This document shows positions 429 to 4,395 of a stretch of DNA of 4,395 nt, in pieces. Position numbers and translations under genes: made by a program. Source of the stretch: a virus (Duplodnaviria; Heunggongvirae; Uroviricota; Caudoviricetes); the IMG/VR virus record IMGVR_UViG_2531839237_000023; one strand, given 5' to 3'. Numbering within the stretch: the stretch's first letter is position 1; every line of letters begins with the position of its first letter. The notes under the pieces are model-generated. The model did no database searches, was not told the DNA's origin, and saw only the letters and a list, made by a program, of their open reading frames with translations.

Positions 429-1478
429 GTGCGGGTATTACTTCGACCTGTTCCGGTACCGGAACTTGGGGTGGTGGTCCTTAAACCAGGCCGTGAATCC
501 ATGCAGGTATTCCATAACCCTCGAGTGCTTGTGGAGCCGGAGCCGAAAAGCATGCGCGGTCTGCCGTCCGGCATCGTCCCTGCCGTTCGCCAGCCGCTGG
601 CGGAGGATAAATCATTACTGCCGTTTTTCAGCAATGAGCGAGTGATTCGTGCTGCTGGTGGCGCTGGCGCACTGTCTGACTGGTTACTGCGCCATGTTAA
701 ATCCTGCCAGTGGCCACATGGCGATTATCATCACAGTGAAACCGTTATTCACCGTTATGGTACCGGCGCAATGGTGTTGTGCTGGCACTGCGACAACCAG
801 TTGCGTGACCAGACCTCCGAATCACTTGAGCAACTTGCTCACCAAAACCTGTCAGCATGGATGATTGACGTCATTCGTCACGCAATGAATGGCACACAGG
901 AGCGTGAATTATCGCTGGCTGAATTATCCTGGTGGGCGGCCTGCAATCAGGTGGTGGATGCACTACCTGAGGCAGTAGCGCGTCGTTCGCTGGGATTACC
1001 AGCGGAAAAAATCCGCTCCGTATACCGTGAGAGTGACATCGTACCGGGAGAACAGACAGCCATCAGCATACTGAAGCAGCGCACAAAAAATATTGCGCTG
1101 CCACTTCACGTCCACCAGCAACAAAATCCACCACAGAAAAAAACGGTTGTCAGTATCGCCGTTGATCCGGAGTCTCCTGAATCGTTCATGAGGCGGCCTA
1201 AACGTTGCCGCTGGGTTAATGAGAAATACACGCGCTGGGTAAAGACACAGCCGTGTGCGTGTTGTGGTAAGCCTGCTGACGATCCGCATCACCTGATTGG
1301 TCATGGTCAGGGGGGAATGGGGACAAAGGCCCACGATATTTTCACGCTACCGTTGTGCCGGGAGCACCACAACGAACTTCATGCAGACCCGCTGGAGTTT
1401 GAGAAAAAGTACGGCTCTCAGATTGAGTTAATTTTTCGTTTTCTTGATCACGCCTTTGCGACTGGCGTGCTCGGGTAA
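429..1478 (+). CDS. DUF968-like lambdoid prophage protein (YdfU-like), 349 aa, with two Cys/His-rich HNH-like modules
   Basis: Long ORF from the track. GTG start at 429 is preceded by GGAGG (420-424); alternative ATG starts at 501 and 552 (the latter with GGAG at 539-542). C-terminal motif CACCGKPADDPHHLIGHG...CREHHNELH and an internal CQWPHGDYHH...CWHCDN module resemble HNH/zinc-finger-type nuclease motifs. Position immediately upstream of rusA and Q is typical of this family. Family name is recalled, not searched. Confidence 0.75.
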   Translation: MRVLLRPVPVPELGVVVLKPGRESMQVFHNPRVLVEPEPKSMRGLPSGIVPAVRQPLAEDKSLLPFFSNERVIRAAGGAGALSDWLLRHVKSCQWPHGDYHHSETVIHRYGTGAMVLCWHCDNQLRDQTSESLEQLAHQNLSAWMIDVIRHAMNGTQERELSLAELSWWAACNQVVDALPEAVARRSLGLPAEKIRSVYRESDIVPGEQTAISILKQRTKNIALPLHVHQQQNPPQKKTVVSIAVDPESPESFMRRPKRCRWVNEKYTRWVKTQPCACCGKPADDPHHLIGHGQGGMGTKAHDIFTLPLCREHHNELHADPLEFEKKYGSQIELIFRFLDHAFATGVLG

Positions 1479-1490
1479 AAGAGGTGACTG

Positions 1491-1862
1491 ATGCTCATAG
1501 ATTTGGTTTTACCTTACCCGCCGACGGTGAACACTTACTGGCGACGCCGTGGCAGCACATATTTTGTATCAAAAGCCGGGGAGCGTTATCGCCGGGCAGT
1601 GGTGCTTATTGTTCGCCAGCAGCGACTGAAATTAAGCCTGTCCGGACGGCTGGCAATAAAAATTATTGCAGAGCCACCGGATAAGCGTCGTCGTGACCTG
1701 GACAACATTCTGAAAGCACCGCTGGATGCGCTGACGCATGCGGAAGTGCTCATTGATGACGAGCAGTTTGATGAAATCAATATTGTGCGCGGTCAGCCTG
1801 TGCCAGGTGGACGGCTGGGCGTGAAGATTTACGAAATCAGAGGTGGTAACGATGGCGCGTGA
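1491..1862 (+). CDS. rusA: Crossover junction endodeoxyribonuclease RusA (Holliday junction resolvase), 123 aa
   Basis: Translation shows RusA hallmarks: [15 protein letters not shown] near the N-terminus, the acidic catalytic block [30 protein letters not shown], and [11 protein letters not shown] near the C-terminus, closely matching E. coli RusA as I recall it. SD GAGGTG at 1481-1486, ATG at 1491. Confidence 0.93.
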
Positions 1863-2223
1863 TATCCAGATGGTTCTTGAGCGATGGGGGGCATGGGCAG
1901 CAAATAATCATGAAGATGTAACATGGCCCTCGATAGCTGCTGGTTTTAAAGGATTAATCCCGACTAAAGTGAAATCACGTCCTAAGTGTTCTGATGATGA
2001 CGCCATGATAATTTGTGGTTGTATGGCACGATTAAACAAGAATAATCAGTATTTGCACGATTTGTTGGTGGATTATTACGTAGGTGGAATGACATTTATG
2101 GCTCTTGCACGTAAGCATAGATGTTCTGATGGGCTTATTGGTAAAAGGCTTTATAAAGCGGAAGGTATTATTGAAGGAATGCTTATGGCTCTGAATGTCC
2201 GGTTAGATATGGATATGCGGTAG
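1852..2223 (+). CDS. Late-gene antitermination protein Q (phage 82 / QuuD-like family), 123 aa
   Basis: Translation [25 protein letters not shown]...[14 protein letters not shown]...[16 protein letters not shown]...[13 protein letters not shown] matches the QuuD/Q82-type antiterminator as recalled. The ATG at 1852 overlaps the rusA stop (TGA 1860-1862), indicating translational coupling. The track's GTG at 1843 is an alternative start. Confidence 0.88.
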
Positions 2224-2314
2224 GGATATATAGTGATGAGGGTTATGTTTTCTGTGTTTATAATTAACATGTTTATTTTTTGATGGTCATGTATTGTGGA
2301 AGGTAGATAAAATG

Positions 2315-2343
2315 TTGCCTGGTGAATTGAAAATATTGATAAT
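2315..2343 (+). promoter_or_regulatory. Candidate sigma70 promoter upstream of the CPBP gene (-35 TTGCCT 2315-2320, 17-bp spacer, -10 GATAAT 2338-2343); possibly the prophage late promoter PR'
   Basis: Hexamers read directly from sequence, 4/6 and 5/6 matches to consensus with optimal spacing. A perfect TATAAT also occurs at 2259-2264 but lacks a good -35. The Q-to-CPBP intergenic region 2224-2374 is very AT-rich. Which element, if any, is PR' with its Q-utilisation site cannot be decided from sequence. Confidence 0.3.
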
Positions 2344-2374
2344 CAATCTTCATCATTAAATAAAAGGAGTGCTT

Positions 2375-3193
2375 ATGTGGATTGTGTTAGTACTGTCACT
2401 GTCAACTCTCAGTTGGCATAAGGTAGTGGCTTTTTCATTGTTGACGGTGTCTGTTGTCCTGGCTGTGCTTAATGATATTATTGATTGGTCGGTGTTATTT
2501 TTTGTTGCTACAATCGTTTTTTTTATTATTTTGAAGTTCAACTGGAAATATAACGCCTGGGCTAAATCTATATATGAAGTTGGCATAGTTTTATCAGCCA
2601 TAGCATTATTTTTCCATCTATGGCCAGGGTTTCACAATCCTGTAGTGCTAAATTCTGTTACTGTTGGCCCTCAAAGTACTCCCTATACAATGTATTTTAA
2701 TTTTGATAAAGCGCTGGTGCCATTTTTGTTAGTCCTGTGTACATCTTCTTTGTTTAAAAAAGAAGTAAAATCAGAAGTGTCTTTGTGGAAGTGGGGGGCT
2801 CTGTCGCTCTCTGTTCCTCTTATCCTGTTTTTGGCTGTTTTTTTTGGTGGATTAAAGCCAGAGATTCATTTTCCTGAGTGGTTGCCAGAGTTTATATTGG
2901 CTAATTTGTTTTTTGTGTCTCTGGCAGAGGAATCATTATTTAGAGGGTATATTCAATCACGGCTATCAGAAGTAACGTCTCCATTGGTTGCATTAATTGT
3001 GGCGGCTTTGTTGTTTGGTTTTTATCACTATTCAGGTGGTGCTTTACTTGTATTATTTGCCACGTTATCTGGTGTTGTGTATGGATTGTCATGGATGTGG
3101 AGTGGGCGTTTGTGGGTTGCCACCCTTTTCCATTTTGGTTTGAATCTGTGTCACTTGTTATTCTTTACCTATCCATTTTTAAAACATAATTGA
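2375..3193 (+). CDS. CPBP family intramembrane glutamic metalloprotease (CAAX protease / Abi family), 272 aa, polytopic membrane protein
   Basis: SD AAGGAG at 2364-2369 with ATG at 2375 (the track's GTG at 2369 sits too close to the SD). Protein is highly hydrophobic with multiple predicted TM segments and carries the three CPBP motifs in canonical order: EESLFR (motif 1, EExxxR), FGFYH (motif 2, FxxxH), HFGLN (motif 3, HxxxN). The gene is much more AT-rich than the upstream phage genes. Confidence 0.85.
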   Translation: MWIVLVLSLSTLSWHKVVAFSLLTVSVVLAVLNDIIDWSVLFFVATIVFFIILKFNWKYNAWAKSIYEVGIVLSAIALFFHLWPGFHNPVVLNSVTVGPQSTPYTMYFNFDKALVPFLLVLCTSSLFKKEVKSEVSLWKWGALSLSVPLILFLAVFFGGLKPEIHFPEWLPEFILANLFFVSLAEESLFRGYIQSRLSEVTSPLVALIVAALLFGFYHYSGGALLVLFATLSGVVYGLSWMWSGRLWVATLFHFGLNLCHLLFFTYPFLKHN

Positions 3194-3273
3194 TTTTTTC
3201 TATGGTTTTAAATTTATAAGACTGAAAAATAGCAGGACGTGACATTTGCATGAAAAATATGCACGGCAAAGCA

Positions 3274-3287
3274 TTTACGTACGTAAA
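3274..3287. repeat. Perfect 14-bp palindrome TTTACGTACGTAAA; nearby shorter inverted repeat TGCAT-N7-ATGCA (3247-3263)
   Basis: Read directly; the sequence equals its own reverse complement. Located in the 286-bp intergenic region between the CPBP gene and the small winged-helix gene. Candidate dimeric-regulator operator; function unknown. Confidence 0.3.
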
Positions 3288-3334
3288 AAATCAGGTATGC
3301 TGTTAAGAGTGGTTATTTCGCCGCATAGCTTGAC

Positions 3335-3356
3335 CCCGCCTCTGAGCGGGTTTTTT
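3335..3356 (+). terminator. Candidate rho-independent terminator (5-bp all-GC stem CCCGC/GCGGG, 6-nt loop, T6 tail) downstream of the CPBP gene
   Basis: Stem 3335-3339 / 3346-3350, loop CTCTGA, then TTTTTT 3351-3356. Short stem, so moderate confidence. A second CCCGC at 3360-3364 could alternatively pair with the GCGGG arm. Confidence 0.5.
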
Positions 3357-3479
3357 GTGCCCGCAAAGTAGCGCAGTGCGTTAAATGTGCTGGTAGTTAT
3401 TAATACAGGTCTTTCAGCTTGCTGGCTTTTTCGACAAGAGTTATTGGTGTGTCACGTTAACCGGAAAGGGTAAAAAGAC

Positions 3480-3677
3480 ATGCTGAAACAGCAGGATATG
3501 ACAGAAACCGCCAGAGTTGTGTTTGATGAATTAAGCGTCACCGAACCGGCGACAGTCGGGGAGATTGCGCAGAATACTTACCTTTCACGCGAACGCTGCC
3601 AGTTAATACTGACCCAGCTGGTTATGGCGGGTCTGGCAGACTATCAGTTCGGTTGTTACAGACGCCTTCAGTCCTGA
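3480..3677 (+). CDS. Small (65 aa) putative winged-helix DNA-binding protein (PapI/FaeA-like pattern)
   Basis: ORF from the track. SD-like GGAAAGGG at 3463-3470 before ATG 3480. Sequence pattern TVGEIAQNTYLSRERCQLILTQLVMAGLA resembles small winged-helix regulators. Stop codon TGA (3675-3677) lies inside a strong terminator hairpin. Family assignment is inference. Confidence 0.55.
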   Translation: MLKQQDMTETARVVFDELSVTEPATVGEIAQNTYLSRERCQLILTQLVMAGLADYQFGCYRRLQS

Positions 3678-3691
3678 AGGCTTTTTTATTT
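3664..3691 (+). terminator. Rho-independent terminator: 7-bp stem GCCTTCA/TGAAGGC, 4-nt loop GTCC, tail TTTTTTATTT
   Basis: Perfect inverted repeat 3664-3670 / 3675-3681 followed by T-run 3682-3687; + strand specific (no T-run on the complement). Immediately terminates the 65-aa ORF. Confidence 0.8.
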
Positions 3692-3711
3692 GTGGTAAAT
3701 GGGCGGCTGGT

Positions 3712-3719
3712 GGGGGGGG
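3712..3719. repeat. Homopolymeric G8 tract within a G-rich block (GGGCGGCTGGTGGGGGGGGCGG, 3701-3722)
   Basis: Read directly. Lies between the terminator at 3664-3691 and the candidate promoter of the AraC-family gene. This is a potential slipped-strand mispairing site. Confidence 0.9.
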
Positions 3720-3747
3720 CGGCACCTGTCAGTCCTTTGCTTATGTG

Positions 3748-3778
3748 TTGATGATAATTTACCTTTTGGGGCTATAAT
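3748..3778 (+). promoter_or_regulatory. Candidate sigma70 promoter for the AraC-family gene (perfect -10 TATAAT 3773-3778; weak -35 TTGATG 3748-3753 at 19-bp spacing)
   Basis: Hexamers read directly. The spacer is suboptimal and there is no extended -10 TG. Location is appropriate, about 35 bp upstream of the ATG at 3814. Confidence 0.3.
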
Positions 3779-3813
3779 TGAGCTAACCAATTGCTAATGA
3801 AAGTAAAATTATA

Positions 3814-4395
3814 ATGGCTGTTGTCTGTTCAGTTATCATGGTTTGCTCCCCAATTAATATTTTTCTTGAAAAGGATACGTTGTCACTTAAGCCAGGCTCA
3901 GTCGTTCTGGCCACCAAATGCATCAGGGAGCTTTTCCTTATGCATTATGGCAAAGTTAAAATTGTCGATATAAGCGAATCCGTCGTAAGTCAATATCTGG
4001 AAAGTCAGCATAAGCTGACGAGGACTCGTCTGACTGACATTCCGCTTTACCTGTTGCTGGAACCCAACAATCCTGCGTTGGCTGCGGCTTTAATTACCAG
4101 CCAGGGATTTTCCGGAGAGGTCACGGATATGTTTCTTATGATGGCCTGCCTGTCTCTGTTTGAAACAGATGAACGGATATTATTATTTTTAAGTGGATGT
4201 TTATCCAGCATAAGTGCCAAAGTCAGGGCGATAATTCAGACAGATATATCAGCAAGCTGGACGCTTGGTGCGATTGCTCTACAGTTGCATATGAGTGAGA
4301 GTTTGTTAAAGATAAAACTGAAAAATGAAGGGGGCATGTTCAGTCGCTTGTTGCTGGAAGAGCGGATGCGTGTTGCTGTAAATATGTTATGTTCC
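3814..4395 (+). CDS. AraC/XylS-family transcriptional regulator, YdeO/AppY/GadX-like subgroup; 3' end truncated by window edge (194 codons present)
   Basis: Frame open from 3787 to the window end with no stop, checked codon by codon. N-terminus MAVVCSVIMVCS resembles the YdeO/AppY N-termini as recalled (M..VCSV..). C-terminal portion SISAKVRAIIQTDISASWTLGAIALQLHMSESLLKIKLKNEGGMFSRLLLEERMRVAVNML is the first HTH of an AraC-type DNA-binding domain. Alternative start ATG 3838. AT-rich with a weak RBS, typical of horizontally acquired AraC regulators. Confidence 0.8.
   Translation, partial: MAVVCSVIMVCSPINIFLEKDTLSLKPGSVVLATKCIRELFLMHYGKVKIVDISESVVSQYLESQHKLTRTRLTDIPLYLLLEPNNPALAAALITSQGFSGEVTDMFLMMACLSLFETDERILLFLSGCLSSISAKVRAIIQTDISASWTLGAIALQLHMSESLLKIKLKNEGGMFSRLLLEERMRVAVNMLCS

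Follow-up and report, generated by a model that had tools for sequence, protein, structure and literature searches.

The gene that runs off the 3′ end of a 4,395-nucleotide stretch of viral DNA (IMG/VR record IMGVR_UViG_2531839237_000023, class Caudoviricetes; the whole stretch is called the window below) is very probably a psr (prophage-encoded secretion regulator) gene of which the 5′ four-fifths are present, in the form of a PsrB-type allele carried by a PsrA-type lambdoid prophage (like Sp4 of strain Sakai and CP-933M of strain EDL933) in a draft Escherichia coli genome. A first-pass annotation, made from the letters of the window alone, had read this gene as a prophage-borne YdeO/AppY-like AraC regulator, a candidate for control of host stress or acid-resistance regulons. 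We found that this interpretation is supported and that the regulator is already known, as a member of an experimentally characterised family.

Members of the Psr family are recognised by close identity to PsrA or PsrB and by location in the late regulatory region of a lambdoid prophage, and both features were found here: the gene lies downstream of DUF968, RusA, and Q genes, and the encoded fragment shares 191 of 194 residues (98.5%) with the EDL933 protein WP_000301797.1 and is 91% identical to ECs1087 of Sakai. ECs1087, which is located in Sp4, has been called psrA by the laboratory that named the family (PMC13502914, 2026). In resequenced EDL933, the WP_000301797.1 gene belongs to a prophage inserted at ydfJ, the end of which is occupied by NleG-family effector genes, and the gene is flanked by a DUF1133-family gene (an antiterminator in the Sakai record) and by tRNA-Ile/Arg genes. 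By its location, we take this prophage to be CP-933O/OI-57 and hence the gene to be Z2104, which reviews give as psrB, together with Z1789 (OI-50) as psrA and Z0321 (OI-8) as patE (PMC10877973, PMC8565820). ECs1087 and WP_000301797.1 match at 216 of 237 residues (91%), and ECs1087 is 91.1% identical to the copy at a further locus (L001), which is one residue away from WP_000301797.1. PsrA and PsrB are 90% identical according to the same reviews (PMC10877973, PMC8565820), and the agreement between these values supports the PsrB assignment.

The choice of allele could also be followed site by site. At the 39 positions that vary between psrA and psrB, the window matches the psrB copy 35 times and the psrA copy 4 times, and the 35 nucleotide differences from Sakai ECs1087 over the 582 nucleotides (nt) all fall where the window follows psrB. 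The four psrA-like sites give rise to I122, L123, and I167, which are the PsrA residues. To judge from the sequence, this is a PsrB-type gene with a small PsrA-like patch in a PsrA-type backbone, and such mosaicism is routine in these phages.

The reading frame runs from the ATG at 3814 to the last base, 4395, through 194 sense codons without a stop, and it is still open at that point. Its translation starts MAVVCSVIMV and contains SESLLKIKLKNEGGMFSRLLLEERMRVA, which bears out the N-terminal signature M-x-x-V-C-S-V and the string for the first helix-turn-helix (HTH) to which the first-pass annotation had pointed. The window is the entire draft E. coli contig AOEB01000049.1 (assembly GCA_000335255.2), the record of which lists a partial AraC-family protein as the product. 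Because the contig itself ends at 4395, we attribute the interruption of the frame to an assembly break and not to a lesion. The full-length product would have the two-part AraC layout, in which an N-terminal domain of ~130 amino acids (aa) is followed by a double-HTH DNA-binding domain, and the window holds the first HTH alone (residues ~141 to 172, nt 4234 to 4329), the second being expected past the contig end in the last 43 codons. As a consequence, the fragment falls under the Pfam HTH_AraC cut-off (18.5 bits at residues 141 to 172, against 26.6). Full-length 237-aa relatives that are 98 to 99% identical to it pass both PF00165 (50 bits) and PF12833 (37.8 bits against a cut-off of 33.6).

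As had been noticed at the outset, the gene is AT-rich (43.1% G+C, against 52.7 to 53.6% in the neighboring RusA and DUF968 genes) and has a weak ribosome-binding site; no GGAG-like Shine-Dalgarno sequence was found in the 20 nt preceding the ATG at 3814 (CTAATGAAAGTAAAATTATA). It had further been described as sitting directly after a strong terminator and a G8 tract. A terminator is indeed present, consisting of a 7-bp stem (3664 to 3681) followed by TTTTTTATTT and beginning 14 nt inside the 3′ end of a 65-aa open reading frame (ORF), but with a folding energy of −10.8 kcal/mol (z = −2.4) it is ordinary rather than strong, and it is ~130 nt away from the start codon rather than directly upstream of it. 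The G8 tract is also present (3712 to 3719), and in an alignment of five loci it was kept in the psrB-type loci but not at the Sakai Sp4 psrA locus, which has GGGTGTTAG instead. We considered the tract as a phase-variation switch and found no support for this: its length is constant in the five loci, it is missing at Sakai psrA, and it lies 5′ of the candidate −35 hexamer. A search of the window against Rfam returned zero RNA families at E <= 0.1.

Between the G8 tract and the gene lies a sigma-70 promoter-like site that matches the consensus at 10 of 12 positions, the top-scoring site within 2200 to 4395. Its TATAAT hexamer (3773 to 3778) ends 35 nt before the ATG, and the whole site is identical in all five aligned loci, including EDL933 psrB and Sakai psrA. 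We regard it as the regulator's own candidate promoter, which would allow moron-type expression. Taken in order, the terminator, the conserved promoter-like site, and the AT-rich gene make up the layout of a cargo gene (“moron”), and they occupy the region that separates Q from the lysis genes.

What such a gene does has been reported for its close relatives in pathogenic E. coli. Both PsrA and PsrB activate gadE and yhiF and act as repressors of type III secretion (locus of enterocyte effacement, LEE), in the case of PsrA through GadE and YhiF; PsrB binds at the promoters of hdeA and gadE and makes the cell more acid resistant; deletion of psrA alone increases type III secretion system (T3SS) activity and decreases persistence in sheep; and deleting psrB makes little difference to secretion, repression being seen with the gene in trans (PMC10877973, PMC8565820). 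In addition, psrA and gadE change in concert in response to the prophage small RNA HnrS (PMC13502914), which the HnrS paper locates in Sp9, Sp10, and Sp12. The role in acid resistance proposed in the first-pass annotation is thus the one that the reviews report for the near-identical PsrA and PsrB (PMC10877973, PMC8565820), and for the copy in the window it is predicted from that resemblance.

Extrapolating from the work on PsrA, PsrB, and PatE, we propose that in a lysogen transcription of the regulator gene would start at its own promoter and would not depend on the phage late operon, with the terminator serving to insulate the gene from upstream Q-dependent or late read-through. The product would bind to AT-rich sites that lie upstream of both gadE and hdeA; it would also induce yhiF. 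Activation of gadE and hdeA would parallel the action of its chromosomal relatives GadW, YdeO, and AppY on acid-resistance genes (all three act on gadE and AR2 genes, and AppY targets gadE directly). The expected result is that glutamate-dependent acid resistance would be turned on and that, in LEE-positive hosts, type III secretion would be repressed indirectly, via GadE and YhiF.

One might suppose instead that the main targets are prophage genes or other horizontally acquired genes (cargo, pch, effector loci, or a general anti-H-NS derepression) and that the GAD effects are side-effects of over-expression. The linkage of psr genes to pch (PerC-family) regulators and effector loci fits this idea, as does a review that describes recognition of AT-rich DNA and derepression of H-NS-repressed genes by these regulators, and part of the published evidence does come from the gene in trans, the psrB deletion having hardly affected secretion. 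However, loss of psrA alone was enough to raise T3SS activity and lower persistence in sheep, direct binding of PsrB to the hdeA and gadE promoters has been reported, and the nearest chromosomal relatives, GadW, YdeO, and AppY, all act on gadE/AR2. We therefore consider the idea quite unlikely and keep acid resistance and type III secretion as the probable targets.

Several points weigh against our identification of a PsrB-type regulator of acid resistance or against parts of it. The name PsrB was assigned from genomic position and the published value of 90% identity, with no record bearing the name. The sources conflict over the address of psrA, which is Z1789/OI-50 in the reviews and Sp4/CP-933M in the assemblies: we found the PsrA-type gene in Sakai Sp4 and in EDL933 CP-933M (WP_000261909.1), and we found no AraC gene in Sakai Sp6 or in CP-933N of resequenced EDL933 (the prophages taken to correspond to OI-50), nor any in Sakai Sp9 and Sp10. 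The Z1789/OI-50 address probably stems from the original EDL933 assembly. The three residues I122, L123, and I167 differ from PsrB, and none of the full-length proteins retrieved was an exact match. The promoter is a consensus match alone and is thus a prediction, and the LEE-dependent part of the mechanism is conditional, the LEE status of the host lying outside the window. Finally, the last 43 codons, with the second HTH, are also outside the window, so that this copy is only presumed to be intact.

The last of these points bears on whether the gene is a pseudogene or a remnant, disrupted just past 4395 (for example, by insertion of IS629 or IS1203) and without a functional product, which we judge to be very unlikely. 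Although the window does stop inside the gene, and the late regions of related prophages often contain IS3-family elements and decayed genes, the break falls exactly at the end of a draft contig, as expected from multi-copy psr-tRNA repeats, and neither a stop nor a frameshift interrupts the 194 codons that are present. Moreover, seven full-length relatives were inspected, of which three were translated, and each of the seven is annotated as an intact gene of 714 nt (237 aa). The contig probably ends inside psr because psr and the tRNA genes downstream of it are multi-copy repeats that break short-read assembly. Related complete genomes have up to eight places that match a 996-nt query spanning both psr and the 65-aa ORF, and the full-length relatives are followed on their 3′ side by tRNA genes, of which tRNA-Ile (ileZ) comes first and tRNA-Arg second, except at one locus. 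Matches to the last kilobase of the window occur in 2,284 of 5,426 complete E. coli genomes, and in 725 genomes they cover 80% or more of its length.

To place the regulator among AraC subgroups, we compared it with K-12 regulators taken from NC_000913.3. In BLASTP it aligned essentially from end to end with GadW (34% identity, residues 1 to 230), YdeO (31%, residues 1 to 233), and AppY (29%, residues 1 to 232), and in its C-terminal part only, from residue 50 to 108 onwards, with GadX, EnvY, and AdiY (32 to 42%). E values against GadW, YdeO, and AppY ranged from 2e-40 to 3e-33 for a full-length relative, and those for the fragment alone (9e-27 to GadW and 6e-23 to YdeO) are still far beyond chance. 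In an alignment of 16 proteins, the M-x-x-V-C-S-V motif, with C5 invariant, was common to the Psr alleles, their homologue in Sp1, GadW, YdeO, and AppY and was missing from GadX, EnvY, and AdiY, and a neighbor-joining tree likewise set Psr, GadW, YdeO, and AppY apart from the other three. The regulator thus combines the features of the GadW/YdeO/AppY branch, namely, homology in both the N-terminal and the DNA-binding regions and the N-terminal motif. The subgroup first named, YdeO/AppY/GadX, was therefore right as to YdeO and AppY, whereas GadX belongs with the regulator through the DNA-binding half only, and the nearest K-12 relative is GadW. The best NCBIfam model was that of YdeO (NF007407, residues 1 to 229); because its score of 106.9 bits is far below the cut-off of 348, the protein reads as a relative and not an orthologue of YdeO. 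The GadX model (NF007432) scored 88.3 bits against a cut-off of 500 and matched at residues 107 to 232 only.

Closest similarity to Rns/AggR virulence regulators had been set as the result that would overturn this placement, and the alignments went the other way. In sequence searches, the solved structures of Rns, CsvR, and ToxT aligned from residue ~97 to 123 onwards, and CfaD, VirF, AggR, HilD, and a plasmid-borne Salmonella AraC-family regulator aligned over residues ~95 to 231 (31 to 41% identity). We also made an AlphaFold2 model from a 12-sequence alignment, which was poor (predicted local distance difference test [pLDDT] score of 60, predicted template-modeling score of 0.38), and Foldseek ranked Rns, CsvR, and ToxT first against it (~245 aligned columns, E ~1e-9). 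That the regulator is a virulence activator of the Rns/CfaD/AggR/VirF/ToxT group with fimbrial or adhesin operons under its control deserves almost no credence, even though Rns and CsvR come out first by sequence among the full-length solved structures (E = 6e-16) and head the Foldseek matches. The sequence match to Rns, CfaD, AggR, VirF, and HilD is limited to the linker and the DNA-binding domain (residues ~105 to 230), the alignments with GadW, YdeO, and AppY begin at residue 1, the low-confidence model gave poor Foldseek superpositions (template-modeling score of ~0.29, root-mean-square deviation of ~17 Å), and there is no fimbrial operon nearby.

The Foldseek ranking does give a hint, at the level of a low-confidence model, that Psr may have a compact N-terminal domain of the same general type as Rns, CsvR, and ToxT. 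As to the translation start, the Sakai annotation of ECs1087 is a 195-aa protein beginning MHYGKV, i.e., at codon 43, where the window has an internal GGGAG-9 nt-ATG, and the RefSeq form has 237 aa. Residues 1 to 42 are conserved as far as GadW, YdeO, and AppY and Met43 is missing from more divergent homologues, and for this reason we favor the longer form; the full-length product is most likely a 237-aa protein starting at the ATG at 3814. Published psr constructs may differ in which of the two starts they include. Putting these elements together, one could imagine that the N-terminal domain is a small-molecule (e.g., fatty acid) sensor of the Rns/ToxT type and that the codon-43 start yields a shortened, differently regulated isoform. 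We consider this combination unlikely, the poor conservation of Met43 in divergent homologues counting against its isoform part; if it were true, a sensor domain would let a gut metabolite influence how the prophage controls acid resistance and type III secretion.

The neighborhood of the gene agrees with its assignment to a prophage, as the first-pass annotation had it: the regulator follows DUF968, RusA, and the Q antiterminator in the same order as in Sakai Sp4. The full order (DUF968, RusA, Q antiterminator, CPBP protease, 65-aa ORF, and AraC gene) is that of ECs_1082 to ECs_1087 of Sp4 and is shared with EDL933 CP-933M. Over its whole length, the window is 94.7% identical to Sp4 (14865 to 19259 of the extracted locus), but the identity is distributed as a mosaic, being 85 to 90% at 1 to 1600, 100% at 1801 to 3400, and 91 to 95% in the psr gene, where the divergence is due to the window following the psrB allele. 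Recombination junctions relative to Sp4 lie near 1600 to 1800 and 3400 to 3800. The AraC part was found in none of the phage records, matches to which span bases 1 to 1837 only. The positions of the features are collected in the table.

Features of the window (positions are those of the whole 4,395-nt stretch)
Feature	Positions	Strand	Basis
DUF968 gene (429-1478) and RusA Holliday-junction resolvase gene (1491-1862), lambdoid nin region	429..1862	+	Gene calls with Pfam; synteny with Sakai ECs_1082-1083
Phage Q antiterminator gene, marking the start of the late region	1852..2223	+	Pfam PF06530, E = 8.7e-52
CPBP/CAAX-type intramembrane protease gene, 37.7% G+C, cargo between Q and the regulator	2375..3193	+	Pfam PF02517, E = 1.4e-19
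65-aa ORF, possibly a small winged-helix protein	3480..3677	+	TrmB match, E = 0.0034, below cut-off
Intrinsic terminator-like hairpin (GCCTTCA-GTCC-TGAAGGC) and T-run	3664..3690	+	Scan, folding energy, conservation in relatives
G8 homopolymer, intergenic, 5′ of the promoter-like site	3712..3719	+	Sequence
Sigma-70 promoter-like site, ATGATA-16 nt-TATAAT	3751..3778	+	Consensus scan; function inferred
PsrB/PsrA-type AraC/XylS regulator gene, 5′ 582 nt (codons 1-194 of the expected 237)	3814..4395	+	Translation, identity, Pfam/NCBIfam
Internal GGGAG-9 nt-ATG (codon 43), possible alternative start	3926..3942	+	Sequence

The CPBP protease gene is 100% identical in nucleotide sequence to Sakai Sp4 ECs_1085 and probably also represents cargo; to suggest that it acts in abortive infection or immunity would be speculation. 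The 65-aa ORF, which some NCBI records name “TrmB family transcriptional regulator,” recurs 3′ of the antiterminator gene in many prophages, where the next gene is either an AraC regulator or a DNA methylase (Sakai Sp9 ECs_1779 and loci L015 and L016), and it is frameshifted in EDL933 CP-933M. More distant homologues of the psr gene (63, 58, and 39% identity) likewise lie just 3′ of the Q antiterminator in other prophages, and at two of these loci a DNA methylase gene stands between the 65-aa ORF and the AraC gene. Relatives that share the left flank have, 4 to 6 kb downstream, either pchA or a gene of the PerC family.

At the other end of the window, a GC-rich hairpin with a T-run (ACCCGCTTCGGCGGGTTTTGTTTTTT) occupies positions 42 to 66, and bases 1 to 69 match a stretch just 3′ of the Hok/Gef toxin gene in related prophages (locus L001, 3002 to 3070); by this match, the hairpin is probably the terminator of the hok locus. 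A 92-aa ORF without a family match (149 to 427) nearly abuts the DUF968 gene from upstream. Relatives have it as a conserved hypothetical protein, with a frameshift in O26 RM10386.

A search of the protein database returned close relatives only, under generic names. Beyond the prophages, full-length homologues with ~31 to 34% identity over residues 1 to 233 (H52 to H57) occur on plasmids of E. coli, Shigella flexneri, and E. fergusonii, where they are annotated, if at all, merely as helix-turn-helix proteins; on sequence grounds, these would be plasmid-borne members of the GadW/YdeO/Psr branch. One 171-kb E. coli record in the plasmid collection carries a psr copy that is 99% identical (H51).

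The value of these results is mainly one of correct annotation, and they open no new question. In the databases queried, this gene and related ones carry only the labels “helix-turn-helix domain-containing protein” or “AraC family transcriptional regulator” despite the published functions of near-identical proteins, and PsrA and PsrB tie prophage carriage to acid resistance and LEE control. Recognition of a psr gene also means that the source strain probably carries effector prophages of the enterohemorrhagic or enteropathogenic E. coli type, and the finding of a PsrB-type gene in a PsrA-type prophage adds a further case of module shuffling among these phages.

Compared with known systems, the regulator is least like GadX and the Rns/CfaD/AggR/VirF/ToxT proteins, with which it shares the AraC double-HTH domain (31 to 45% identity over ~95 to 125 residues), whereas its N-terminal ~105 residues show no detectable sequence similarity to theirs and they do not have M-x-x-V-C-S-V. 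With GadW, YdeO, and AppY it shares end-to-end homology, the N-terminal motif, and a very similar first HTH (SESL[LI]K.[KR]L), and AppY is itself prophage-borne, on DLP12. It differs from these three in not having the K-12 inputs (EvgAS for YdeO and the gadXW operon with GadY for GadW), in occupying a cargo slot of a phage late region, and in an identity far under the level of orthologues. PatE (Z0321, in OI-8 and Sakai Sp1), which we presume from the position in Sp1 to be ECs_0287, is likewise an AraC regulator encoded by a prophage, has the same N-terminal motif, and aligns over its full length, and it targets gadE, gadBC, and hdeAB via the same hdeA promoter segment as PsrB, according to a review; ECs_0287, however, is only ~36% identical and falls on a separate branch with the protein P0051. 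PsrA (ECs1087 of Sakai Sp4 and WP_000261909.1 of CP-933M) has the same six-gene order and the perfectly identical stretch noted above, but its protein is 91% identical and the Sakai psrA locus does not have the G8 tract. At the PsrB locus of EDL933 CP-933O/OI-57, the terminator, the G8 tract, and the promoter-like site all match those of the window, the T-run being one T shorter, whereas the flank there is a DUF1133-type protein gene with no CPBP gene and the window has a PF06530-type Q gene and the CPBP protease gene, as in Sp4.

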